A stretch of 62,881 nt of DNA, taken from Nostoc linckia z4 (lineage in GTDB: Bacteria; Cyanobacteriota; Cyanobacteriia; Cyanobacteriales; Nostocaceae). Positions within the stretch are counted from its first letter, which is position 1, and each line of letters starts with the position of its first letter. The notes beneath the pieces are model-generated. The model was given only the letters and a program-made list of their open reading frames with translations, was not told the origin of the DNA and ran no database searches. Positions 3,831-34,233 of this stretch are shown one piece after another. The stretch spans positions 14,453-77,333 of the forward strand of contig NZ_LAHA01000035.1 of NCBI RefSeq assembly GCF_002608075.1, in the 5' to 3' direction. The translations under genes and the position numbers were made by a program.

Positions 3831-6068
3831 ATGGTTTACCAACGCACTCATACCTGGCTCTACTCTTTAAAAGACTCTCTGCAACCCCTCAAGCCGCATC
3901 TGACCCCCCTAGTCTGCCCGCAAGCGATAGAACAACTCGACTCTGTAAGCAGTTACTTTCCAGATGCGATCGCTTCGACTTATGGCTTTGAATATCGCCT
4001 GCAACCTTCTGCTCCAGTAGTTGACTTTGCTTTTCAAATTACCGATACCGGTCGAGACATTTTAGCAGGCTTAAACCCCCATACACGTCTGTCGGAGGAT
4101 TTTAACAAACATCCCGTTTGGCAACAAATTCAGAAGTTCTCCACCGAATGGGCAGATCCTTCTTCCTTACTCCATTACTTCATTAGCGATCTTTGGTTAG
4201 AGTTTGATTTAAAGCTGGATGGCGATACTAGTAGCTCGCCAAGTTCACTTGGCGGGGTAAAGGGGAAAGGGGAAAGGGGAAAGGTTTTAAATCCCTTACC
4301 CTTTACCCCTTCCCCCAGCCCTGACCCAGCATTTTTGGGTTGCCAGACTACTAATATCCCCATACCTGGGTTATTTTTCGGAGTGACTAGCCCACCAGAT
4401 AATTCAGGAATCTCCTTCAACTACTCTTGGATTTGGGAACAAGCTATGCCTTTATTATTAGGCACGCCTTTGCCTCCCGCCTTAGAGAAAAAATTCATCG
4501 ACTGTATCAAACGGTTGCCTCCCCGAACCAGCATTTTTCAGGTTGGGCTGATGTTTTCCCGAACCGTGGAAGCAATAAGACTCTGCCTTGTCGGTTCTCC
4601 TTCGGAATTGCTGCCATACTTGAATGAAATAGGCTGGACGGGACAGCTTGCGGAGGTAGAAAAGCTCGTCAACTCCCTTTCTGGCTGCGTTGATGGCATT
4701 ATCCTCGACCTTGATATTGGCGAACAGATTTACCCGCGAATTGGCATTGAAGGAATTTTTCTCACCCGGTACCAAGCCTGCGTAAACGGACAATGGGAAT
4801 CGCTGCTAGATTATCTAACTTCCCAAGGTTTATGTGCCAAAGAAACCAAAGATGCTTTGCTCAAATACTCTGGTTATAGCTTAGTAAAGCATCTGGGCGA
4901 TCGCATTTACGTCCGGGGGTTGAACCATATCAAACTCATTTATCAATCAGGGCAACCCCTAGCAAGCAAAATTTATTTTGGTGCAATGCATCAACCCCTG
5001 AGTAAAATACCTGGGCGTTCTGCTGAGACGGTAAGTACAGAGGACGCAACCAAGCAAGAACGTGGCGACGGGGGGAGAGTTTCCCATATCGAATCAGCCG
5101 TTACTTTTTTGCTAACTGCACGGAATTCTGAGGGGTGGTGGATTGATTTTCACCTAGCGGCTGGCTTGAGCGATGAATGGGTGACTGGTTATGTAGGAAC
5201 AATGTTAGCGAATATACCCGATTCCCGCGTTTCTAAAGCTGTTTCCACAGCTTGGAATCTGCTCAATAGTCGCCGCCATCGCGTCAATGGCAAATGGGGT
5301 TACAATCGTTTGCCCCCTGGCGATGCAGATAGTACTGGTTGGGTACTCCAGCTTGCCCGCGCTATTGGTGAGAGTAATTCAGAACGGGCGCGTCAAGCGA
5401 TGCAATCCCTAGCAGATCATAAGCGGCCGGATGGAGGTATTTGCACCTATGAGAGTGAGGAATCGATTCGGGCTTTTATTCATGCTTCTCCGGAAATCGG
5501 ATTTGCGGGTTGGTGCGGTTCCCATACTTGCGTGAGTGCGGCAATAGCAGCTTTGCCGGAATACCGCTTTCAGCTTCAAGATTATTTGCGATCGACTCAG
5601 CAAAATGATGGTAGCTGGCTGGCTTACTGGTGGCAAGATCCCGAATATGTAACAGCTCTAGCGGCTGAGGCGATCGCCGCTTGTTATCCAAATTCTGATT
5701 GTATTACCAACGCCGTGGCGTGGGGAATGAACCGCCTTAGTTCTCAGGGATTTGTCGCAACTAGCGATTGCCCCTCTGGTTCGCCATTTGCCACAGCTTG
5801 GTGCTTGCGACTGCTGATACTGAGACGGCAAGATACCGCAGTACAAGCAGCGATCGCCAAGGCAACTGATTGGTTATTAGCACAGCAACAGCCCAATGGT
5901 TCTTGGATTTCGTCAGCCAGGTTGCAAGTTCCATTACCGGATGACCTAAATCCCAATAAATTTAACCAGTGGATTTACCACGGCACGATTCAAGGCAGTG
6001 TAGTTTTTGACAAGTATTGTGTCTTCACCACCGCCACCGTATTACAAGCTCTACATCGTAGTTTATAA
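3831..6068 (+). CDS. Protein whose C-terminal ~400 aa carry squalene/terpene-cyclase or prenyltransferase-type alpha/alpha-toroid repeats
   Basis: Repeated QxxxGxW-like motifs (QQNDGSWLAYWW, QQPNGSWIS, GWWIDFHLAAG). Immediately upstream of the LanM-like gene and co-oriented with it. The low-complexity Gly/Lys/Pro segment is encoded by an inserted palindromic repeat. Confidence 0.5.
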   Translation: MVYQRTHTWLYSLKDSLQPLKPHLTPLVCPQAIEQLDSVSSYFPDAIASTYGFEYRLQPSAPVVDFAFQITDTGRDILAGLNPHTRLSEDFNKHPVWQQIQKFSTEWADPSSLLHYFISDLWLEFDLKLDGDTSSSPSSLGGVKGKGERGKVLNPLPFTPSPSPDPAFLGCQTTNIPIPGLFFGVTSPPDNSGISFNYSWIWEQAMPLLLGTPLPPALEKKFIDCIKRLPPRTSIFQVGLMFSRTVEAIRLCLVGSPSELLPYLNEIGWTGQLAEVEKLVNSLSGCVDGIILDLDIGEQIYPRIGIEGIFLTRYQACVNGQWESLLDYLTSQGLCAKETKDALLKYSGYSLVKHLGDRIYVRGLNHIKLIYQSGQPLASKIYFGAMHQPLSKIPGRSAETVSTEDATKQERGDGGRVSHIESAVTFLLTARNSEGWWIDFHLAAGLSDEWVTGYVGTMLANIPDSRVSKAVSTAWNLLNSRRHRVNGKWGYNRLPPGDADSTGWVLQLARAIGESNSERARQAMQSLADHKRPDGGICTYESEESIRAFIHASPEIGFAGWCGSHTCVSAAIAALPEYRFQLQDYLRSTQQNDGSWLAYWWQDPEYVTALAAEAIAACYPNSDCITNAVAWGMNRLSSQGFVATSDCPSGSPFATAWCLRLLILRRQDTAVQAAIAKATDWLLAQQQPNGSWISSARLQVPLPDDLNPNKFNQWIYHGTIQGSVVFDKYCVFTTATVLQALHRSL
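4254..4316. repeat. Palindromic small dispersed repeat (GGGGAAAGG-type) inserted in-frame in the 3831..6068 CDS
   Basis: ggggtaaaggggaaaggggaaaggggaaagg ... cccttaccctttaccccttccccc inverted repeat. A related element occurs at about 822..882 and about 2401..2450 in intergenic DNA. Confidence 0.7.
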
Positions 6069-6079
6069 GGAAAATTAAG

Positions 6080-9000
6080 ATGAACCCAGTTATTTCTAGT
6101 ATCTCTACACAGCAGTTGCCCGCGATCGCCAACCCCGTTATTTCTACAACTCAGTTGCAAAGCATCGTTAGCCGCGCTAGCAATCTGTTTGAACGACTCG
6201 ATCGCCAGATTTTCTCACCCTCCCCCGAAACTGATGAAAAACTCTTGCAATCGCGTCTTGAGACTTGGTGTCAGACAGTAGCAAAAGGAAATTTCGAGCA
6301 TTTTCAACAATACTTGCAATGGGATGGGCTGAATTTAGAAACAGCAAAAAGCGCGATCGCACCTGTATGTTTGCGCCACGATGCTCCCCTACCCAACTGG
6401 GCAAAGACACTCTCATCTGTTCTCAATCTTGCCTTTTCTCAGGCAGCAACAAATCTTGATGCAAAGACCTCACATCGCTTTTTGATTCCCCAGTCTCCCC
6501 TTCCCTTTGAAGAGATTCTCGCTCCATTTGTTTTATTTGCTCAACAAGAACTAATTGCTAGAACTGGCGAGTCTTACCAGAGATTAACCGATGAGGTTCA
6601 TGGTGTATTTGAACGCAGTTTGCTAGGTCAGTTAATTGACATCGCCACACAACCTTTACAGATAGCTTTTACCAGTTGGCGAGTCGCTCAACAATCCTCT
6701 TTTACTCGTCTACTGACACAGACACAAGAACTGCAAAGCCGCAACCTCTATATCCGCTTTGTTCGGGAAATGTTGCAGGGCAAACTAACTTCTTTTTTTG
6801 TAGAATATGCTGCTTTAGCAAGGTTACTGGCTACGGCAACCGAACTTTGGGTAGAATCGCAGTTAGAATTTCTGCATCACTTGGACGCAGACTGGTCAGA
6901 AATTGCAGAGAAATTTAACAACGGTTTACCTCTCGGTCAGGTGACAGCGGTGCAGCCTCTCCGATCTGACCCCCATCGCGGCAGACGCTCTGTAATTACA
7001 CTGAAAATCGAGCCAAATCTGCACTTAGTATACAAACCCAAGCATTTAGGCATTGAACAGGCGTACAATCAGTTTTTGGCTTGGTTAAACGAACAGGGTT
7101 CTCCTCTGCCTCTAAAAACCTTGCAAGTAATTAACCGCGATACTCACGGCTGGGTAGAGTTTGTCACCTCCCAAGCCTGTGAAGATACAGCCCAAATAGA
7201 ACGCCATTACCAACGGGCAGGGATGTTATTATGTTTGGTTTACGTGCTAGATGCTACCGATTGTCACTACGAAAATATCATTGCCTCTGGAGAATATCCA
7301 GTTCTAATTGATACCGAAGCTGTGATGCAGCATCGACCGAAAAACGAGTCATCAGCAAACCTACAGACTGCTCAACAACTCGCATTCCATCGCGTAGATA
7401 ATTCCGTGATGCGTACTGCCTTATTACCTGTCTGGCATCCAGCAGCCAATGGTAACTCCGGCTTTGATTTCAGTGGCTTGGGCAGCCACAATCAAGAGAC
7501 TAGGCATTATAAAGGACTCCAGTGGTCTGGCGTAAATACAGACCAGATGGCTTTAAATCAAAAGCTGCTGGCGATCGATCCATTTTTAGCTCACGTGCCA
7601 ACCTTAAATGGACAACCTGCCAATTTATCAGACTGGATAGAGGCAGTGGTGGAAGGATTTGAGCAGATGTATCGCTTCCTGCAAGAGAAACAAGACGTGT
7701 TACTCTCCCCAGATAGCCCGCTGCGGACAATGGCAAAACAGCTTGTGCGCTTTGTGTTTCGCCCCACAAACACTTATTTGAGAATTTTAAGCAAGCTCCG
7801 TAGTTCAGAGTACTTGCGGGATGGAGTTGACCGCAGTATTGGACTGGAAATCCTCAAGTTAACAGCAGCAGGCGCAACTGAAAAACCAAAATTCTGGTCT
7901 CTTCTCCAGTCTGAACGCCAACAAATGGAGCAGTTGGATGTTCCTTTTTTCTCAATTTATCCTGATACAGATGTGTTGGAGTTATCCCCAGATAGTCGCG
8001 TTGAGGGATTTTTCCAAGGTTCTAGCTTTGAATTAGTACTAGAGCGCATCAACAACCTGAGCAAATCTGATTTGGCGATACAAGTTGATTTTATCCGCAG
8101 CACTCTATATTTAAGAATGGTTCCCGGTCAAGAGATAGCTGCACCGGAAAAACCTGCCAATCAAACTTCTCTAAGCGTGCAGCAATCATCTGAGGCGATG
8201 CTGGATGAGTCAGATTTGGTTGCTGAGGTCATGGCAATTGCCCGCAGATTAAAAGAGCGAGCGATTTGCGCTCCTGATGGATCTGTAACTTGGCTTGCTC
8301 CTCAGTTTATCGCTCAACAACAGCGATTCCAATTTCAACCCACAGAACTGAGCCTTTTTGATGGCAAATTAGGAATTGCATTATTTCTGGCAGCGGTAGA
8401 GCATATTAAAAAAGATGGAGAGTTTCGAGAACTGTGTTTGGGAGCGTTGCAGGAGTTTCGTCAGGCGGTAGCCAAAATTGAACAGCCAAAAGGTGAATTC
8501 TCAAACCTGAATCTTGGCTTATCAACTGGACTAGGAGGATGGATTTACAGCCTGACTAAAATCGGTCAGTTTCTCAATGACGATCGCTTGCTTGCAGATG
8601 CTCTAAATTTGGCATACTCGATAGTACCAGAGGCAATTACTAGCGATCGCAGTTTGGATATCGCCGGCGGTACAGCAGGTACGCTTTTGAGTTTATTGGC
8701 ATTGTACCAGGTTGTTCGCGACCCAATTGTGCTAGAACGTGCCTGCCTGATTGGTCGTCATTTATTAGCCGAAAGTGTAATAACTTCTAAAGGCAGAGCT
8801 TGGAAAACGCTGGATGGTCGATTGTTAACGGGCTTTTCCCACGGAGCAGGCGGAATTGCCTACGCCCTGCTGAAACTGGCACAGGTGACGAATGATGCTG
8901 AGTTTCGGGCGGCTGCCGCAGAAGCGATCGCCTACGAACAAAGTATATTTTTACCAGAGGTAGGCAACTGGCCGGATCTCAGGGACTTTTCTAAATTTCT

Positions 9001-15409: not shown

Positions 15410-16811
15410 GTTTCAATCCCTAATAGGGATTAAGAAAAATTGTAACTCTGCTTTATGTTGCCTTAACTCGCAGTAAATCAGGTTTCAATCCCTAATAGGG
15501 ATTAAGGAAAATTGTAACGCAGGCATTTATGGGGTTATCACGCCTAAATGATGTTTCAATCCCTAATAGGGATTAAGAAAAATTGTAACCTGTTGTAAAT
15601 ATTCAACGCTATTCTCCTCATAGTTTCAATCCCTAATAGGGATTAAGAAAAATTGTAACCGACTACCCTGTATCTGGAATTTTTATTGACTGGGGTTTCA
15701 ATCCCTAATAGGGATTAAGAAAAATTGTAACTCAGAAGATCCTTTACCACCGATTAATTTGAGTTGGTTTCAATCCCTAATAGGGATTAAGAAAAATTGT
15801 AACTACAACAAGTTTCTGTAAGGTGTCTTGCGTACTCTCGAAGTTTCAATCCCTAATAGGGATTAAGAAAAATTGTAACTCTAACAGTTGGTAGCACTCC
15901 ATACCATCCAGTTTCAATCCCTAATAGGGATTAAGAAAAATTGTAACCAAAGGGAAAGACGCGAGCAATCGCATGGATTCTGTTTCAATCCCTAATAGGG
16001 ATTAAGAAAAATTGTAACATTGGCGATGATTGGGAATATGCCTAGAATTCGTTTCAATCCCTAATAGGGATTAAGAAAAATTGTAACGCAAAGTCTAGCT
16101 GTTCATCTTCTGCAAAGTTTTCGTTTCAATCCCTAATAGGGATTAAGAAAAATTGTAACTTGTTAATCTAGTGGCGTCACGATACTTTTCTCTTGGTTTC
16201 AATCCCTAATAGGGATTAAGAAAAATTGTAACCCGGTCACTGCGGCACTTCCTAAAGTTGCTACACCAGTGTTTCAATCCCTAATAGGGATTAAGAAAAA
16301 TTGTAACTTAAACTACTCTGAGTGTAATAGTCAATATCTAAGTTTCAATCCCTAATAGGGATTAAGAAAAATTGTAACTCCTTGTCGGTTGCTGGGTTTT
16401 CACCTTTTCCTATGTTTCAATCCCTAATAGGGATTAAGAAAAATTGTAACTCTTAGCTGTAGACCCATGCGAGATAGATGAAGAGTTTCAATCCCTAATA
16501 GGGATTAAGAAAAATTGTAACCACCATTTAGCAGAATTTGAATCTCACGAATCACGTTTCAATCCCTAATAGGGATTAAGAAAAATTGTAACAGTTTTAT
16601 TTGGTCTTTTGATAGAGTTATGAACTCAGTTTCAATCCCTAATAGGGATTAAGAAAAATTGTAACAACTTAATTGCTTGTACTACAACTTCTTGAGGTAA
16701 CGTTTCAATCCCTAATAGGGATTAAGAAAAATTGTAACACCAGTCTGAGAAACGTAAGCTTGAGCAACTTCGATGTTTCAATCCCTAATAGGGATTAAGA
16801 AAAATTGTAAC
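15410..16811. CRISPR. CRISPR array: 20 repeats of 37 bp (GTTTCAATCCCTAATAGGGATTAAGAAAAATTGTAAC) and 19 spacers of 31-39 bp; no cas genes in the window
   Basis: Hand-counted repeats start at 15410, 15482, 15553, 15623, 15695, 15767, 15843, 15911, 15982, 16051, 16123, 16196, 16271, 16342, 16414, 16485, 16556, 16629, 16702 and 16775. Repeat 2 carries one substitution (AAGGAAAA), which suggests the low-coordinate end is distal to the leader. The reverse complement of the repeat ends in ATTGAAAC, like cyanobacterial type III / I-D repeat families, so transcription is probably on the minus strand from a leader near 16812-17040. Confidence 0.9.
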
Positions 16812-27014: not shown

Positions 27015-27677
27015 ATGACAATTTTGATCGTAGAAACTCTATGCTCCGAAGCTGCTATATTTTCAGCAACCGAGTCTTTACATCCAGAACCTTTGCTATA
27101 TGGTGTGACTGATGGTAAGGCTGTCGGGACATACTTGGAACAAAAATTTAGACTTTATCTCAAACAGCGATATGAATTTGTAGAGGGTAATTCTGCAAGC
27201 AGTATTGACTTTCCAGGGTTACTTGTAGATGTGAAGGTAACAAGCATTCGACAACCACAATCATCATGTCCTTTCAAATCTGCACGTCAAAAGATATTTG
27301 GGCTTGGGTATTCGCTGCTGATTTTCGTCTACGATAAAACAGACAATAGTACGAACCGCACAGCAACCCTAAATATTTTGCATACTATTTATGTAAGCGC
27401 CGAAAGAACCGCAGATTTTCAGATGACTCGTGCAATTCGCAATATCATAGCAAACGAAGGTAATAAAGATGATTTAATTGCCTTCATGCTCGATCGCAAT
27501 TTACCCGTTGATGAAATTGAGGCAAGCAACATTGCCGATGAAATTATGAGCAATCCACCGGTACAGGGTTTTCTGACTATTTCCAACGCTTTGCAATGGC
27601 GACTCCAGTATGGAAGAGTAATAGAACGTGCTGGTCAAGAAGATGGTATAATTCCTGTTTACAAAATTAATCAATGA
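27015..27677 (+). CDS. Putative PD-(D/E)xK restriction endonuclease
   Basis: IDFPGLLVDVKV fits a D...(D/E)xK nuclease core. Its stop overlaps the start of the downstream methyltransferase-like gene (ATGA), which indicates translational coupling. Confidence 0.4.
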   Translation: MTILIVETLCSEAAIFSATESLHPEPLLYGVTDGKAVGTYLEQKFRLYLKQRYEFVEGNSASSIDFPGLLVDVKVTSIRQPQSSCPFKSARQKIFGLGYSLLIFVYDKTDNSTNRTATLNILHTIYVSAERTADFQMTRAIRNIIANEGNKDDLIAFMLDRNLPVDEIEASNIADEIMSNPPVQGFLTISNALQWRLQYGRVIERAGQEDGIIPVYKINQ

Positions 27678-29116
27678 CTCATACTGCACATAAAACAAAG
27701 ATAGAGTACGGAGATTTCCAGACACCATTAGAATTAGCTAATAAAGTATGTAAAAAGCTAGTTGCACTCGGCATAACACCAGATATTATAGTTGAGCCAA
27801 CGTGTGGAGTTGGTAATTTTATTGAAGCAGCTTTAGATTCATTTCAATCAGTAAATAAAATTTTTGGAGTTGAAATCAATCCCGATTATTTAAATCAAGC
27901 TCAAACAAAAGCTAAATTTGTTAATCATAAAAGAATTGAAATTATATATGGAAATTTTTTTAAATTTGATTGGTCATCAATTATAGAAAAATCAAATCAT
28001 CAAATATTAGTAATTGGTAATTTACCTTGGGTAACAAACTCGCAGCAAGGTAGCATTGATGGAAAGAATTTACCAAATAAGAGTAATTTCCAAAACTATT
28101 CTGGTTTAGATGCAATTACAGGTAAGAGTAATTTTGATATATCTGAATGGATGTTAATTCAAGTTGTGCAATGGCTACAAAAGCGTGAAGGTTATCTAGC
28201 GATTTTATGTAAGAGTTCTGTTGCTAGGAAAATATTAACGTATATTAGTTCTCAAAAATTACATCTTGCTTACTGTGCAACTTACAAAATAGATACAAAA
28301 AAATATTTTGATGCTACTGTTGACGCGTGTTTACTGTTATGTAGATTTGAGTCAAATTCCAAAAATTATTTCTGTGATGTATTCAGTAGCCTTGAAACTT
28401 CTAATTATTATCGAATAGGTTATTGGAATAATGTACTTGTCAGAGATATTATTACATTTGAAAAACTACAAAATCTATACGATAAAAAATCAAAAATAAA
28501 ATGGCGCTCTGGTATTAAGCATGATTGCGCCAGTGTGATGGAGTTTCGCAAAATTAACAACACTCTGATTAATGGATTGGGAGAAGCTGTTGGTATTGAA
28601 GAAACATATCTGTTTCCTTTGCTTAAAGGTTCCTATGTTGCTCAAAATAAAACAAAGGTTACTGATAGATATGTTTTAGTAACTCAAAGATTTGTGGGTG
28701 AATCTATCGAACATATTAAAAATTACGCTCCTAAAACTTGGAACTATCTAGAAGCATATTCACAATACCTCGACAAAAGAAAAAGTAAGATTTATCAAAA
28801 TAACCCTCGATTTTCTATTTTTGGTGTAGGTTCGTATACTTTTGCACCTTGGAAAATTGCAATTTGTGGACTTTACAAAAAATTGGACTTTAGATTGATA
28901 GGTAAGATAGAAGAAAAACCTACTGTTTTTGATGATACAGTTTACTTTATTAGCTTTGATGATGAGAAAATTGCATATAAAACTTTTGAACTTTTGACTT
29001 CTTCAATAGCAAAAGAATTTTATTCGTCTCTAATTTTTTGGGATGAAAAGCGCCCAATCAAGTCTAGTATTTTAAATAAATTAAACTTGGCAGCTTTGGC
29101 AGAAGTATTAATTTGA
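27674..29116 (+). CDS. Putative DNA methyltransferase (gamma-class N6-adenine-like)
   Basis: Motif I-like EPTCGVGNFIEAA near the N-terminus, followed by a motif IV-like GNLPW where NPPY/NPPW is expected. The C-terminal half could be a target-recognition domain. Confidence 0.45.
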   Translation: MTHTAHKTKIEYGDFQTPLELANKVCKKLVALGITPDIIVEPTCGVGNFIEAALDSFQSVNKIFGVEINPDYLNQAQTKAKFVNHKRIEIIYGNFFKFDWSSIIEKSNHQILVIGNLPWVTNSQQGSIDGKNLPNKSNFQNYSGLDAITGKSNFDISEWMLIQVVQWLQKREGYLAILCKSSVARKILTYISSQKLHLAYCATYKIDTKKYFDATVDACLLLCRFESNSKNYFCDVFSSLETSNYYRIGYWNNVLVRDIITFEKLQNLYDKKSKIKWRSGIKHDCASVMEFRKINNTLINGLGEAVGIEETYLFPLLKGSYVAQNKTKVTDRYVLVTQRFVGESIEHIKNYAPKTWNYLEAYSQYLDKRKSKIYQNNPRFSIFGVGSYTFAPWKIAICGLYKKLDFRLIGKIEEKPTVFDDTVYFISFDDEKIAYKTFELLTSSIAKEFYSSLIFWDEKRPIKSSILNKLNLAALAEVLI

Positions 29117-29240: not shown

Positions 29241-30779
29241 TCACTGCCCGTTAATCCGAATCAAGTCTGTCAAAATATTATCCAAACTGCCGTTAACTTG
29301 AATGCGATCGATTTTCTCTGCAATGCGTTCTAAAACTTCGAGTTCCTTGAGACGCAAAGCTACAGGGTTATCTTCCATCACTTTGGCAGTGTTTAACATA
29401 CTGCGGGTGGCGGCGGTTTCTTCTCTGCGTCTGACTACGTTTGCTTGAGCAGCTTTTTCGGCTTCGACTACTTTGCTCAAGATTGTCTTAATCTCGCCGG
29501 GTAAGATAATATCTTTGACGCCTACAGAATCTACTTCGATTCCATAGTCGGCGGTTTTTTGGCGGATATATTCAGATATGCTTGTGTCAATTGCACCTTT
29601 ATCTTCTAATAAGGCATCTAAGTTGCGTTCGCCGATCGCACCACGCAATGCAAATTGTAATTCTTTGTATAAGAAGCCGGCAATATCTGACAAGCCGCTT
29701 TTTGCTCTCAAGGGATCGAGGATGCGGAAGCCAGCTGTCAAATTTAACCGCAGAGGTACTTTATCCTTAGAAAGGATATCTTGACCTGATACTTCCATGT
29801 TTTGCAGTCTCAAGTCGATGGTTTCGGTTTGAAAGGAGCGTCCAAATAACCACCAAGCGTGTATACCTGGCGATCGCTGTCCTTGAAACTCTTGATTAAT
29901 ATACAGTAGTCCGGTGTGCTGTGCGGGTACTTGGCATGTATGCAAACAGTTGCGACTGAGCAATTTCACTTCTGCCGAACCTTCAACCAACTCAGCAACT
30001 AAGCGAGGCTCTAACTGAGCATCAGTGCTGATGTCGATAATTTCCACCTCAACACCTTGCCAAAACAGCTTGCGACTTGTGGGTGGTAAAATAGAAATCG
30101 CTTTACCTCGATACCGCACAATTGCAACTTGCCAATTCAGTAATTGTACTGTTTGGCAGTAAGCAGCAATAAAATCTGGATGTTTTTCAATTAGAACATC
30201 TTCTAGAGGAAAGTCTGGGTTAGGAACAATTCGGCTAAGAGTCCGTACTGTAACATCCCGATCCACTGACCAAAAAGCATATTCTCCAGGTTCTAGAGGT
30301 CGCACAAAATCATTTTGTACATACAGTAAACCAATCTCATACTCCGAAATTTGGAACTTTTTCACTCCATTCAAGCTGATTTTACGTAGTTGCTGCACAA
30401 AAGAACTAGGCAATTCTAAACTTTCTTCTAAGTTGAAGACATAAGATTCTACCTCAATAAAACCACGCCAAAAAGCTACCAATTGATTTGGTGCAACGCT
30501 TACCCAATTCTGGCCGTAGCGTACTAAAGCGGCTTGGTTGTATGCGGTTCTGATAATCAGTAAATGTTGTTGCAGTTCAGTCTGATGATTTCGCAACAAC
30601 AGCTCCAGGTTTTCAATTTGAGCTTGTGGCTGGTTGAGGTCATAAGTTTTTACTTGCCAATGACGACCAAAATAAGTATGTGTACCAGGCTGTAAAATTT
30701 TCTGGAAGTCGCTGCGGTGATATAAAATACCGATTTCGTTAGGTTTTATATAAAATGTTTTCCACATAGTAATTTGCAT
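29241..30779 (-). CDS. SPFH/band-7 (stomatin/prohibitin-like) domain protein with three degenerate N-terminal partial repeats
   Basis: C-terminal 170 aa have the SPFH pattern followed by a coiled coil. The N-terminus has three about 110-aa repeats of IG(I/L)LY...DF...L.PG.H.(F/W). Confidence 0.55.
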   Translation of the reverse strand: MQITMWKTFYIKPNEIGILYHRSDFQKILQPGTHTYFGRHWQVKTYDLNQPQAQIENLELLLRNHQTELQQHLLIIRTAYNQAALVRYGQNWVSVAPNQLVAFWRGFIEVESYVFNLEESLELPSSFVQQLRKISLNGVKKFQISEYEIGLLYVQNDFVRPLEPGEYAFWSVDRDVTVRTLSRIVPNPDFPLEDVLIEKHPDFIAAYCQTVQLLNWQVAIVRYRGKAISILPPTSRKLFWQGVEVEIIDISTDAQLEPRLVAELVEGSAEVKLLSRNCLHTCQVPAQHTGLLYINQEFQGQRSPGIHAWWLFGRSFQTETIDLRLQNMEVSGQDILSKDKVPLRLNLTAGFRILDPLRAKSGLSDIAGFLYKELQFALRGAIGERNLDALLEDKGAIDTSISEYIRQKTADYGIEVDSVGVKDIILPGEIKTILSKVVEAEKAAQANVVRRREETAATRSMLNTAKVMEDNPVALRLKELEVLERIAEKIDRIQVNGSLDNILTDLIRINGQ

Positions 30780-31287
30780 AGATAATTTGACCAGATTTAA
30801 TCAAAACATTTATAACCTCGCTGGAAACTAAATACCACCTATAATTCTGGAGTTGACAAACCTATAAATAAAGGTTGAAGGATTTGTTTGAGGTTTTGTA
30901 GTATTATATTACATTTTACTCTGCCGGCGCAGGTGTTTATAGTTTGGGATGCGGGCAAAAGCTTCTCCAGAACTGGATTAAGATTGCTGTTAGTTTTAAT
31001 AGACGGCTCAAAGGCAATCTAGAAAAACAGAACCGCGCTCAAATATGCCGATCGCTTTGCCAATCTAGAATTTCCGAAGTCAAAGCAGATATAGGAAAAC
31101 GAAGGTACATACTCAAGTTGGGGAGAGATTACAGTTGCGCTGGCTCCTTTACTGTTACGAACACCTGCATGACAGAGTACAAAAAACAAAAAGTTTTTTC
31201 ACTGGGTTTTTTTGAATCGCCCAATACATCTAGCTGTGACACTGCCTTGTCCCTAACAAGGTGCCCGTACCCAGGGCAGGGGTTTTT

Positions 31288-31363
31288 TGGCTGAAAGTAT
31301 AGGAATCGAACCTATAATGAATCGGCGATACACCGATCGCTCTACCAAATGAGCTAACTTTCA
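31288..31363 (-). tRNA. tRNA-like element (76 nt, encoded CCA) with a non-canonical anticodon loop (UGUAUCG); probably a pseudo-tRNA
   Basis: Folds by eye into a cloverleaf: acceptor TGAAAGT/ACTTTCA, D arm GCTC-ATTTGGTA-GAGC, T arm ATAGG-TTCGATT-CCTAT. It lacks U33 and a purine at position 37. Confidence 0.35.
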
Positions 31364-31533
31364 TGGTGAAATAGTTGGAAGCATTAAGCGGTATACGCTA
31401 TTACCAGAGGTTGGCGCACCAGTCGGGTATACAGAACCCAAACTATAGCTTTGTGGCTTTGTCGCTATCTCGCTTCAAATTTAGCACAGGAAAAAAATAT
31501 TACAAGGGAACGGGGAAATCGAGGAATTATCGG

Positions 31534-32586
31534 CTATTCTTGCGATTCATATTTTTCTTTGATGCGTTCCACACGCGATCGCAGTTCTGCACCTTTGTTG
31601 GGGTTAATCATTGCTACATAATTTGCAAACCCAGTAATTGCAGCAATTATATTAGGTGAATTGCCCCAATGTTTGCCTGACAAGCCTTCTTGTTCGATTT
31701 GATATAAAGTTGCACGAAAAGCTTTTAATGTCTTTTTAGATATATTTAATTGTGTATTTACAACAACACCTGTTACTTGTTGTTGCACAGATTTACCTAA
31801 AATATTGGTTTTATGAGAATTAACAGTAAAACCTTCACTATTAATAATTAATTTCGCATTTTTAATTAACTTATATCTTCTCTCCGATGCCTGTCCAGAA
31901 GCAGAAAATGTTAAATCATCAGCATAGCGTGTATAGGAAAATTCCAGATTTTCAGCCATTTTTACCATCCGCCGATCGAGATGATAGCAAATTAAATTTG
32001 AAATAACAGGACTGGTAGGCGAACCTTGAGGTAAGTGACGATTTTCTATACTAATATTGTGAGCTTGTTCATGTATTTCTATTTCCGAAGTAGTACAGAT
32101 CAGTGCAAAAATATTCGCTGCAATTCCTGAATAACCACACCCAGAAAATAATTCTTTGACACGTTTGTAGGTAATTGATTGAAAAAAGTTTTGTAAATCA
32201 ATGTGAACTATGACATCAGCACCAACATGAGGTTGAGCGTTGGTGACTATGGAACGATTTTTACAAAAACCATGTGCTGCATGATGAACTTCTAATTTTT
32301 CTAAAATATTTTCTAAAATCCACCTTTGAGCAGCCTTAAGATGGGGTTTGGGTGCAGAAATTAGTCTTTCTCCACCAGTCTTTTTTGAAATTTTGAAATG
32401 GACGTAATGTTTAACTTCAGAACCAGGAAAACTAGATGTCAAAAAACGCAGTTGTCCTGGGTTTATCCCCATTGCACAGGCTATTTCTGCGGCAGAATGA
32501 TATTCAGCTAAACCATGCGATCGCAATACTGCTGAATTACCCTCAATTGCTAGCGGGGTGGTGGTTAAATTTGTGGCGTACATCAT
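31534..32586 (-). CDS. Retron-type reverse transcriptase
   Basis: RT motifs hIDLqnFFqSI, LPQGSPTSP and YADDLTF. The retron-characteristic NAxxH (TNAQPHV) and VTG (QQQVTGVVV) motifs are present. 350 aa with no maturase or endonuclease domain. Confidence 0.65.
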   Translation of the reverse strand: MMYATNLTTTPLAIEGNSAVLRSHGLAEYHSAAEIACAMGINPGQLRFLTSSFPGSEVKHYVHFKISKKTGGERLISAPKPHLKAAQRWILENILEKLEVHHAAHGFCKNRSIVTNAQPHVGADVIVHIDLQNFFQSITYKRVKELFSGCGYSGIAANIFALICTTSEIEIHEQAHNISIENRHLPQGSPTSPVISNLICYHLDRRMVKMAENLEFSYTRYADDLTFSASGQASERRYKLIKNAKLIINSEGFTVNSHKTNILGKSVQQQVTGVVVNTQLNISKKTLKAFRATLYQIEQEGLSGKHWGNSPNIIAAITGFANYVAMINPNKGAELRSRVERIKEKYESQE

Positions 32587-32968
32587 AGCAAAAGATTTTT
32601 GGACTCTGCTAATGCAAGTGTTTACAGTTGAGGTGCGGGCAAAAGTTTCTCCAGAACTGGATTAAGATTGCTGTCACTTTCCCCTGGTGGAAAAAGATAA
32701 CTGCGCTCAAATACACCGTTCTATTTGCCAATTCAAAATCTCCTTAGAGAAATCGATTGTGGAAAACGAAGGGACATACTCAAGTTAAGGAGAAATACAA
32801 TTGCGCTGGCTCCTTGACTGTAGCCATCAAACATCACCTTGGGAGTGATGAGCGACAGCAAAACACTTGCACCGCAGAGTTGAGAAAATGAGAGTCTCGA
32901 ATCTTTTGGGATTCGTACCATATTGGCTACCTTAAAAGGGTAGTGTCTTTTAACCCGGACAGGGTTTT

Positions 32969-33044
32969 TGGCAGAAAGTGTAAGAATCGAACCTACAACA
33001 AATCGATTATGAGTCGATCGCTCTTCCAATTGAGCTAACTTCCT
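32969..33044 (-). tRNA. tRNA(CAU)-like gene (76 nt, encoded CCA); second copy in tandem with the canonical tRNA-Met
   Basis: Cloverleaf by eye: acceptor AGGAAGT/ACTTTCT (one G-U pair); anticodon arm ATCGA-CUCAUAA-TCGAT, identical to the neighbouring tRNA; T arm GTAGG-TTCGATT-CTTAC. Confidence 0.5.
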
Positions 33045-33045
33045 T

Positions 33046-33121
33046 TGGTGTTTGATACAGGACTCGAACCTGCGACACATCGATTATGAGTCGATCGCTC
33101 TGCCAACTGAGCTAATCAAAC
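33046..33121 (-). tRNA. tRNA-Met (anticodon CAU; elongator-type, or tRNA-Ile2 if modified to lysidine), encoded CCA
   Basis: GTTTGAT-TA-GCTC-AGTTGGCA-GAGC-G-ATCGA-CTCATAA-TCGAT-GTGTC-GCAGG-TTCGAGT-CCTGT-ATCAAAC-A-CCA. G1-C72 pair, so not an initiator tRNA. Confidence 0.75.
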
Positions 33122-33540
33122 GATGGTATAGTTTCAAGTACTCGGCGACATACGCCCATACCATAGGTAGGCGCACCAGTCAGGCACACAGAACCCGAAC
33201 CATAGCTTTGTAACTTTCTTACTATTCCGCTTCAAATTTAGCACAATCAGATTGGGGTATGGAGATTAAGTACCAGTCACAGGACTTATATCATTTTGTA
33301 GTGAGTACTTAAGTCCTCAGAGACCATTTATAAAGTAAATCTTAAGTAGTAGCATGGCAAGCCCTAAATATTGCAATAGATTTTATTGTGGGATGGGTGT
33401 CCTCACCCGTCCGGGCGGGCAGGATGCCCACCCCACAAGAGTTTACTAATGCTCGATTTTAGTCTTGTCACGGCACTACATTAATTTTATTTTCGCTTTA
33501 TGAATAACCTCTCAGTCAATTACGAATTACTTTAAAAACT

Positions 33541-34233
33541 TCAGTCCGGAAAAGCTAAACCAGTCATAGGGTCGCGAATATACAACCCTAGTGTGAGACT
33601 ACGGATTGCTTCATCCCAAACGGGTATTAATTGTTCTGCTTGATCTGCCCAAAAATCGAATGTAATCAAGCACTGAACATTTGACCCCAAACCAATGCAA
33701 ATCCGCGAAAAAGCTTCCCGTGGTTCTTCTTGTGTGTCAATAAACTTAATTTCTGTCCAAACAATTTTAGCGGTTTGGCGCTTAACGGTGATAATTTCTC
33801 CCTTTTCAATGGGATTGCGACTGTCGTCTTCTACAATTTTCCTCAAGGTAGATTTAAGTGGAAACTGACTCCAATCGTGGGGAGGTAATTGATTAAAAGA
33901 TACTTCTAGACAGCAATCATCGTTGGGTGGTTTTTTATCGACGAATTTGAAAGATTTTTCTTGTGGCTCAAAAACCCAATCTTGAGGGACATTGAAGCGA
34001 ACAGCCCCACGATTAGCAACAAATATTTTGTAGCCCGATGGAGATTCCCAGCGATGATCGGGTTTTAATTCAAGCGTTTCTTTAATCCACTGGAGATTGC
34101 TTTTTTTACGCTTTGCCATAAATAGTGTTTTTGGGATCTTTGGTGAAGAGGGCATCACCGAACAGTCTGTCACAGGGAAAAGTTGTTTTAGTAACAGCTT
34201 ACGCCGCAGATGCTTTGGGTTTACCGCAGGCAT
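33541..34233 (-). CDS. Hypothetical protein (start probably at the internal MAKRKKSNLQWIK)
   Basis: ORF only. Flanked on both sides by copies of a small GC-rich repeat (33390..33440 and 34437..34480). Confidence 0.35.
   Translation of the reverse strand: MPAVNPKHLRRKLLLKQLFPVTDCSVMPSSPKIPKTLFMAKRKKSNLQWIKETLELKPDHRWESPSGYKIFVANRGAVRFNVPQDWVFEPQEKSFKFVDKKPPNDDCCLEVSFNQLPPHDWSQFPLKSTLRKIVEDDSRNPIEKGEIITVKRQTAKIVWTEIKFIDTQEEPREAFSRICIGLGSNVQCLITFDFWADQAEQLIPVWDEAIRSLTLGLYIRDPMTGLAFPD

Follow-up and report, generated by a model that had tools for sequence, protein, structure and literature searches.

A retron-type reverse transcriptase of Nostoc linckia lies between two copies of a candidate ancient RNA gene with tRNA-shaped modules

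Why should a retron-type reverse transcriptase (RT) lie between two copies of a repeat that carries tRNA-like cloverleaves? A locus in Nostoc linckia z4 (assembly GCF_002608075.1, contig NZ_LAHA01000035.1) raises this question, and we analysed it within a stretch of 62,881 nucleotides (nt), hereafter the window, whose coordinates are used throughout. The original prediction interpreted the repeat as a duplicated retron non-coding RNA (ncRNA; msr/msd) fused to tRNA-derived structures. The best reading of each repeat, which we call the unit, is instead a gene for a composite ncRNA with tRNA-shaped modules. Sequence comparison indicates that it is an undescribed, ancient cyanobacterial RNA gene, widely conserved across orders. 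With moderate confidence, we favour an arrangement in which this RNA and a downstream gene for an SPFH protein form an ancient stress module, with the RT, a member of the type XIII clade, as an ancestral and dispensable partner that probably acts on the RNA.

On the minus strand, the window contains, in order, unit 1 (~33245-32603), the RT open reading frame (ORF; 32586-31534), unit 2 (~31488-30918), and a 512-aa ORF (30779-29241) encoding the SPFH protein. The RT is bracketed by the two units, which measure 643 nt (upstream) and 571 nt (downstream). The repeat was initially described as two copies of about 340 bp. The two copies were borne out, with a mean identity of 77% in pairwise alignment and nhmmer matches to each other at E-values of 1e-46 to 1e-47. 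Their length was not: the repeat is longer than first described, because ~118 nt upstream of the tRNAs (direct repeat family D2, 33245-33128 and 31488-31371, 79% identical) are duplicated as well. Conserved unit cores occur exactly twice in the 62.9-kb window, compared with an expectation of zero.

The anatomy of the unit was defined from an alignment of 20 units from 12 genomes (alignment A3). Each unit is built from up to six parts: an extended -10-like promoter, a leader, tRNA-shaped module 1, tRNA-shaped module 2, a linker of small hairpins, and a core RNA (Table 1). Module 2 is present in every unit, and module 1 is found only in upstream copies and in single-unit genomes. Within the promoter, which follows a T-rich tract, only T.TG.TA...T is invariant (a TGnTAnnnT pattern), and the inner bases vary between genera. 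The unit appears to be transcribed from this predicted extended -10 promoter of its own, with promoter and start site placed at the level of the consensus. On a Cyanosarcina-like contig (L139), an orphan promoter of the unit type (TTTTTCCATGCTAAATTTGAA) lies ~150 nt upstream of an RT, with the rest of the unit missing. The leader, ~105 nt long, forms three hairpins. The consensus fold of 33 leaders contains 19 pairs, and the central hairpin covaries, with CG, UA, and UG found 13, 11, and 9 times at one pair and GC and AU found 19 and 12 times at the next. Each linker forms two or three small hairpins, and covariation between genera is seen in the first (GCCC/GGGC, GTCC/GGAC, GCTC/GAGC). The upstream-type linker of the window is common to other Nostoc upstream copies and to the single unit of Anabaena PCC 7120.

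The core RNA, 260–300 nt across units, adopts a rod-like architecture in which a 15-bp helix joins the two ends, followed by further nested helices and two distal hairpin arms. Folded as single sequences, the upstream core of the window reaches -103.7 kcal/mol (z = -6.5) and the downstream core -76.5 kcal/mol (z = -3.4). The consensus fold comprises 72 pairs and is 94.9% paired, compared with ~40% in slid controls. Changes on both sides of a pair are seen at 28 pairs, compared with 11.4 in shuffles, and none of the 500 shuffles reached this number. The gcaagtg/cacttgc pair noted in the original prediction is real and lies within the 15-bp terminal helix, which carries compensatory changes between the two copies (TGCAAGTG/CACTTGCA versus TGCAGGTG/CACCTGCG). 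The core and the leader are structured RNAs whose folds are supported by covariation, as the original prediction required of the repeat.

Other identities for the repeat were considered. A protein-coding repeat was rejected because reading frames differ between the copies, indels are not multiples of three, and the covariation supports RNA. A common dispersed element, which the original prediction had named as a possible refutation, was likewise ruled out: there are two copies in the window and none in ~70 other RT loci, and the 40 true metagenome matches share the same type of neighbourhood. A search of the units against Rfam 15 returned no family at or above its gathering score except tRNA. 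The candidates tmRNA, 6S, RNase P, HEARO, GOLLD, ROOL, Cyano-1/2, and YrlA were rejected, with nothing beyond tRNA matching in the units at E-values up to 1. In the literature that we searched, we found no description of the RNA unit or of an association between an RT, tRNA-like elements, and SPFH.

Table 1. Features of the RT locus in the window
Feature	Position	Strand	Basis and details
Extended -10-like promoter, upstream unit	33235..33245	-	TGTGCTAAATT; hexamer TAAATT at 33240-33235
Structured leader RNA, upstream unit, ~105 nt	33124..33230	-	repeat D2, 79% identity; consensus fold
tRNA-shaped module 1	33046..33121	-	ARAGORN CAT; Rfam tRNA 68.2 bits; A73, encoded CCA
tRNA-shaped module 2, upstream unit	32969..33044	-	ARAGORN CAT; Rfam tRNA 63.2 bits; canonical CUCAUAA loop
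Linker with small hairpins, upstream-type	32881..32968	-	alignment A3, columns ~372-570
Core rod-like RNA, upstream unit	32603..32880	-	15-bp helix joins the ends (ACTCTGCGGTGCAAGTG ... CACTTGCATTAGCAGAGT)
Retron-clade RT, 350 aa	31534..32586	-	PADLOC RT_XIII 9.6e-150; Pfam RVT_1; motifs NAQPH, VTG, YADD
Extended -10-like promoter, downstream unit	31478..31488	-	TGTGCTAAATT; 50 nt after the RT stop codon
Structured leader RNA, downstream unit	31367..31477	-	repeat D2; leader consensus fold
tRNA-shaped module 2, downstream unit	31288..31363	-	ARAGORN 'tRNA-Ile tat'; Rfam tRNA 51.9 bits, loop unaligned
Linker with hairpins, downstream-type	31179..31287	-	alignment A3; hairpins GCCCTGGGTACGGGC; CCTTGTTAGGGACAAGG; TGGG..CCCA
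Core rod-like RNA, downstream unit	30918..31178	-	consensus structure as in the upstream copy
Palindromic TrcR-box-like motif over -10 box	30897..30913	.	TGTAATATAATACTACA; ~120 nt before the SPFH start codon
Soluble 512-aa SPFH/slipin protein, N-terminal beta-repeat domains	29241..30779	-	Pfam Band_7 5e-29

All three tRNA-shaped genes that had been reported in the window were recovered, and both ARAGORN and Rfam call them as tRNA cloverleaves with canonical D and T loops and acceptor stem. The oddity noted for the third was also confirmed: downstream module 2 has the non-canonical anticodon loop UGUAUCG, with G33 and C37. Module 1 had been taken for a genuine, independent tRNA-Met. It does look like a usable tRNA-Met, yet it is a component of the unit. 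Its equivalents in other genera keep the acceptor stem GTTTGAT/ATCAAAC, while their anticodon or T arm is degenerate, non-decoding, or truncated in PCC 7203, PCC 7424, PCC 7112, PCC 7120, and Chamaesiphon. Over 35 distinct sequences, the cloverleaf of module 2 shows 99.1% pairing, and its anticodon and T stems contain compensatory changes. On this invariant body the triplet varies between CAU, GUU, GAU, UAU, AUU, UCU, AAU, UUU, and CUU, and some loops are non-canonical, reading UGUAUCG or having only 3–5 nt. This variation is incompatible with a fixed decoding identity, and the orthologs do not share the stable anticodon of a tRNA gene (a 7-nt loop with U33, a purine at position 37, and one identity).

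These properties bear on the alternative that the modules are real spare tRNAs, similar to the cryptic tRNA array controlled by TrcR in Anabaena, with the rest of the unit being a precursor trailer or the 5' untranslated region of the next gene. Both upstream modules in the window do carry canonical CAU loops, together with an encoded CCA, and the same regulon contains a cryptic tRNA operon (PMC10272220; PMC8421152). Set against this are the spread of at least nine triplets or non-canonical loops over an invariant body, the conservation and covariation of the leader and the 270-nt core themselves, and the separate promoter-like/operator motif located between the unit and the SPFH gene. We consider this explanation very unlikely.

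Two further features of the modules were observed. The junction between the D stem and the anticodon stem reads GAGCGATCG in all three (window 32990-33100 and 31310-31345, minus strand) and contains the cyanobacterial HIP1-like GCGATCG. In addition, a 22-nt stretch across the anticodon arm is the same in upstream modules 1 and 2, suggestive of gene conversion between the two.

The 350-aa RT contains the retron-type motifs described for it, with NAQPH, VTG, and YADD present in the translation. Its PADLOC RT_XIII match covers profile positions 99-430 of 469, and its other strong PADLOC matches are all to retron RTs. Among NCBIfam models, retron families score ~1e-68, compared with 9e-21 for group II and 5e-13 for Drt2. 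These PADLOC and NCBIfam scores favour the retron models and exclude a placement with group II intron, diversity-generating retroelement (DGR), or Abi RTs, which had been envisaged as an alternative. In a neighbor-joining tree, the unit-linked RTs lie beside or within the cyanobacterial type XIII RTs, with up to 61% identity to canonical members, and we classify the RT as retron-type, closest to type XIII. It is a short form without the ~100-130-aa N-terminal extension of canonical type XIII RTs, which in cyanobacteria are ~470 aa long with a 130-aa extension. A canonical cyanobacterial locus (L017) consists of SWIM_XIII (2.8e-249), a ~560-nt gap with a conserved RNA-like region, and then the RT. 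In the window, the SWIM_XIII and ARM models for the WH-SWIM/ARM partner gave no match to the two flanking genes or to the methyltransferase gene beyond SPFH, and other families account for the called genes within ~5 kb. Profile nhmmer searches (--max) found no similarity between the unit and the conserved RNA region between the SWIM gene and the RT of canonical type XIII loci.

To place the locus in context, we surveyed 80 RT-relative loci, one genome per species. The tRNA-like modules and SPFH accompany only the short-RT group. Neither was found at ~70 canonical type XIII loci from many phyla, where two stray tRNA calls were unrelated, which agrees with the suspicion that linkage to tRNA shapes is unusual for a retron. 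The close RT relatives, in Nostoc species and Oscillatoria PCC 7112, all show the order unit-RT-unit-SPFH. Elsewhere the order is RT-unit-SPFH, as in Chroococcidiopsis PCC 7203 with its single unit, or unit-SPFH, as in Gloeothece PCC 7424. At the PCC 7424 locus (L091 ~4000-4070), only the last ~20 RT codons (NPGKGAEFLASVERIKHKYEP, followed by the stop) are left ahead of an intact unit, as a trace of the lost RT. Anabaena PCC 7120 has unit-OmdA-SPFH and no RT at this locus. Chamaesiphon has the order RT-IS-unit-SPFH; the insertion between its RT and unit (L024 ~5100-6300), with inverted repeats GGTAATCTCACATCTTGCACCAG / CTGGTGCAAGATGTGAGTAAT, is probably an IS element.

Scanning metagenome contigs with a sequence pattern returned 58 stretches, 40 of which are true units; the other 18 and all 4 viral stretches are chance matches without a profile match. 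In at least 12 metagenomic or genomic loci, with ≥2 kb of upstream sequence, unit-SPFH occurs with no RT. The other arrangements are RT-unit-SPFH, unit-RT-unit-SPFH, unit-unit-SPFH, full-length RT_XIII-unit-OmdA, and unit-VIT-vWA. Across all loci, these arrangements identify the unit as the constant element and SPFH as its usual downstream neighbour. In L126 (6560-8842, minus strand) and L136, the gene that follows the unit encodes a 760-aa VIT + vWA protein (Pfam VIT 9e-37) rather than SPFH; the same domain pair is also present in vault PARP4.

When only the 12 RT-less cores are folded, the same structure is obtained, and 38 of its 80 pairs carry double-sided changes. No core column distinguishes RT-linked from RT-less units, the RNA being equally conserved in both. 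On these grounds, the unit RNA is expected to have a function that is independent of the RT.

The alternative closest to the original prediction is a canonical three-part retron, with the core RNA as a duplicated msr/msd that yields msDNA from one copy or from both, and with SPFH as the effector. The original prediction is borne out in part, and several observations favour this alternative. The RT belongs to a retron clade and has all motifs, the repeats are structured RNAs with a long terminal a1/a2-like helix and covarying internal hairpin arms, the RT-RNA-SPFH order is conserved across orders, and three RT lineages occur beside the unit, including a full-length RT_XIII without its usual ncRNA. 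What does not stand is the repeat as a private msr/msd. At least 12 loci keep the RNA and SPFH without an RT and with the fold maintained, and PCC 7120 lacks the RT at this locus. The unit has no relationship to the ncRNA of canonical type XIII loci and no invariant branching G. Furthermore, the RNA lies downstream, not upstream, of the RT in the ancestral arrangement, and the SPFH protein is conserved across orders like the product of a housekeeping gene and matches no defence-system model. Overall, a three-part retron seems to us quite unlikely.

If the RNA does not depend on the RT, the RT could conversely be a functionally unrelated passenger beside an ncRNA-SPFH stress module, lodged at a strongly regulated or recombination-prone site. 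Its repeated loss has left no visible mark on the RNA or SPFH, and it is decayed or interrupted in the PCC 7424 remnant and in two dual-unit metagenome loci, L120 and L137, where it is apparently frameshifted or truncated (two overlapping tblastn pieces in L120 and only residues 1-123 in L137). Against a passenger stand the constant position, strand, and spacing. Wherever an RT is present (Nostoc, PCC 7112, PCC 7203, Chamaesiphon, and metagenomic loci), it is encoded on the same strand as a unit and immediately ahead of it, and from Chamaesiphon to Nostoc its stop codon precedes the unit promoter by ~45-60 nt. The unit-linked RTs keep their motifs intact at 53-98% identity, and their divergence ranks as that of SPFH, with Nostoc closest, then PCC 7112 and PCC 7203, and then Chamaesiphon. 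Three RT lineages are found at this position: the main short clade, the RT of L142, and the RT of L097, a full-length 484-aa RT_XIII that lacks the canonical ncRNA gap and is followed by the unit and OmdA. RTs are also seen on deep branches of the unit tree, as would be expected if the association were ancestral and the RT had been lost recurrently.

The adjacent tRNA-like loop is correlated with the presence of the RT as well. All downstream copies and PCC 7203 carry the UGUAUCG loop unchanged, and in PCC 7424 its stem shows a compensatory change. The loop is found only in units directly downstream of a main-short-clade RT or an RT remnant. This correlation is suggestive and not statistical, because a single origin is possible. 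Taken together, the constant position and strand, the three lineages, the deep branches, and the loop correlation argue that the RT is not a random neighbour, and we regard the passenger explanation as possible but unlikely.

How the RT came to lie between two units is addressed by the unit trees. In the whole-unit tree, Nostoc upstream copies group with the single PCC 7120 unit (bootstrap 88) and downstream copies group across genera; in the core-only tree, the two paralogs group within each genus. The duplication would be either old, with cores partly homogenised by gene conversion, or have happened on more than one occasion. Relatives of PCC 7112 and Nostoc that lack the RT have upstream-type units, which is the expected leftover of a recombination between direct repeats that deletes the RT.

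Direct repeats flanking an RT could also mark a mobile element that integrated at a tRNA gene, the repeats being att-like target duplications. tRNA genes are classic integration sites. These repeats, however, are 570-640 nt long and only 77% identical, and they contain a promoter and a whole RNA; several Nostoc species and Oscillatoria retain both copies, and the window genes include no integrase or transposase. To our knowledge, retron RTs are not self-mobile. A mobile-element origin is highly implausible.

The SPFH protein downstream of unit 2 is a core cyanobacterial protein, ≥80% identical across orders, and is the ortholog of the slipin alr0740 of PCC 7120 (81% identical). Its AF2 model has a pLDDT of 81.8. 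We rejected the idea that it is a known defence effector, since it has no PADLOC match. The protein has tandem N-terminal beta-repeats, and among solved structures it aligns over its whole length only to the major vault protein (MVP). The Pfam Vault/MVP models gave no match to these repeats, for which only a weak Band_7 match was obtained.

In PCC 7120, the unit is followed by alr0739 (YdeI/OmdA) and alr0740, and both genes have been studied as part of the TrcR stress regulon. In a trcR deletion mutant, alr0739 is up 72-fold and alr0740 42-fold, and TrcR binds the alr0739 promoter (PMC10272220). Chloramphenicol induces alr0739/alr0740 together with rtcB, rsgA, an HNH gene, and a cryptic 26-tRNA operon (PMC10272220; also PMC9938897). 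As published, the TrcR site reads TGTAGTAT and overlaps the -10 box TAGTAT; the trcR operator includes ATACTACA (PMC10272220). Neither the RNA unit nor an RT is described in these papers, and long ncRNAs were excluded from the transcriptome analysis (PMC10272220). In the window, the two halves of the TrcR-box-like motif are TGTAGTAT on the plus strand (30897-30904) and TGTAATAT on the minus strand (30906-30913). Such a motif lies at the 3' end of most units, in a position that is conserved in other genera: the PCC 7120 unit ends with GTGTAGTATGTGTAGTATAAAC, and TTGTATTA closes most Nostoc upstream copies, immediately ahead of the RT start codon. Given that its promoter carries TrcR-type operator motifs, the SPFH gene is probably switched on by translational stress, and we infer that TrcR controls both SPFH and the RT in this strain.

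Combining these features, we propose the following model. Transcription of the unit would start at its own extended -10 promoter and proceed through the leader, one or two tRNA-shaped modules, and the ~270-nt rod-like RNA. The modules, which appear to keep every tertiary and processing feature of a tRNA without a fixed anticodon, most likely serve as signals for RNase P and tRNA 3' processing or as protein handles, and would thereby release or mark the flanking RNAs. This presumably ancient RNA gene would normally lie just ahead of a soluble SPFH gene with TrcR-type operator motifs. The RT most likely binds RNA from the adjoining unit and reverse-transcribes part of it in the manner of a retron, a step that may be an add-on triggered by stress or phage. 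Duplication of the RNA gene in Nostoc and Oscillatoria would have left the RT bracketed, and recombination between the two unit copies would offer a simple route to repeated RT loss.

Several observations weigh against this model. The step in which the RT copies the unit RNA is one that we infer. The RNA is equally conserved with and without the RT, and no core column separates RT-linked from RT-less units. No branching G is invariant at the inner end of the closing helix, where candidate column 23 is an A in four sequences. Within ~4 kb, no stretch of ≥10 nt is complementary to the 3' ends of the tRNA-like elements, and a retrovirus-like primer-binding-site model was rejected for this reason. 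A generic sigma-70 scan did not pick up the unit promoters, finding 5 sites compared with 7.4 expected, and is uninformative. Taken by itself, the TrcR 8-mer shows no enrichment in the window, so that the support lies in its conserved position and not in counts. At a few loci, the gene that follows the unit is OmdA or VIT-vWA and not SPFH. Finally, the two unit trees disagree on a single ancient duplication.

A more speculative extension of the model, improbable as it stands, is a vault-like ribonucleoprotein. The MVP-like SPFH protein would assemble with, or be controlled by, the tRNA-tagged RNA, on which the RT would act, and the response would be triggered by damage to translation. If this were true, the triggers could include antibiotics, anticodon nucleases, or phage, and the varying anticodon loops would be decoys or sensors for tRNA-targeting attack.

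Further genes and repeats of the window lie outside this core. Upstream of the unit, here and in other Nostoc loci, there is a 230-aa ORF (33541-34233, minus strand), for which gene callers give a 192-aa product of the Pfam family Alr1449 (PF27270); our PADLOC and Pfam scans of the window proteins gave no match for it. A type II restriction-modification pair adjoins the SPFH gene (27015-29116, plus strand) and consists of an NspV-family endonuclease ORF (27015-27677) and a methyltransferase (27674-29116) that matches PADLOC MTase_II at 1e-238. The pair is present in some Nostoc loci and absent from others. A CRISPR array (15410-16811, minus strand) comprises 20 repeats of 37 nt matching Rfam CRISPR-DR5.

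The locus defines a candidate RNA gene of ~600 nt that shows strong conservation across cyanobacterial orders and combines a leader, tRNA mimics, and a rod-like RNA. The locus also appears to offer a natural case in which a retron-clade RT is tied to an RNA with a life of its own. It may be relevant to how retrons gain or swap RNAs and to the role of 'domesticated', vertically inherited type XIII RTs, and it places an RT and tRNA mimics beside a published translational-stress regulon (TrcR, RtcB, and the cryptic tRNA array). The function is testable in genetically tractable strains, with Anabaena PCC 7120 as a natural RT-minus comparator to RT-carrying Nostoc and Chroococcidiopsis.

Among known RNAs, the unit recalls YrlA (RF02553), an ncRNA of rsr-yrlA-rtcBA operons in which a tRNA-mimicking module is joined to a helix of distant ends, and which is genetically tied to a response to RNA damage and translation stress that includes RtcB. 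The Rfam YrlA match to the unit is weak and falls far short of the gathering score (28 versus 69 bits, E = 0.004); the two tRNA shapes in tandem account for it. The unit also differs in size, at ~600 nt versus ~110 nt for YrlA, and no Ro60/Rsr gene is seen here. The position of the tRNA shapes recalls mascRNA-type processing and the large RNAs GOLLD and ROOL, which occur next to tRNAs. By analogy, tRNA shapes located directly 5' of a large structured RNA could give it defined ends through RNase P and 3' processing. The units nevertheless match neither GOLLD nor ROOL, nor any other Rfam 15 family.

The type XIII retrons (clade 10; Mestre et al. 2020, PMC7736814) resemble the locus in their RT clade and in having a structured RNA with a terminal helix beside the RT, and both the published clade and the RT described here seem to be vertically inherited (PMC7736814). 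In contrast, most unit-linked RTs lack the 100-130-aa N-terminal extension and there is no SWIM or ARM partner, the neighbour being an SPFH protein. The RNA is unrelated in sequence to the canonical ncRNA region. In the ancestral order it is encoded after the RT; it includes a leader and tRNA-shaped modules, and it persists at loci that have no RT. Another published context is the TrcR regulon of Anabaena PCC 7120 (PMC10272220): the genes downstream of the PCC 7120 unit are its published targets, and the TGTAGTAT / -10 motif recurs at the 3' end of most units.

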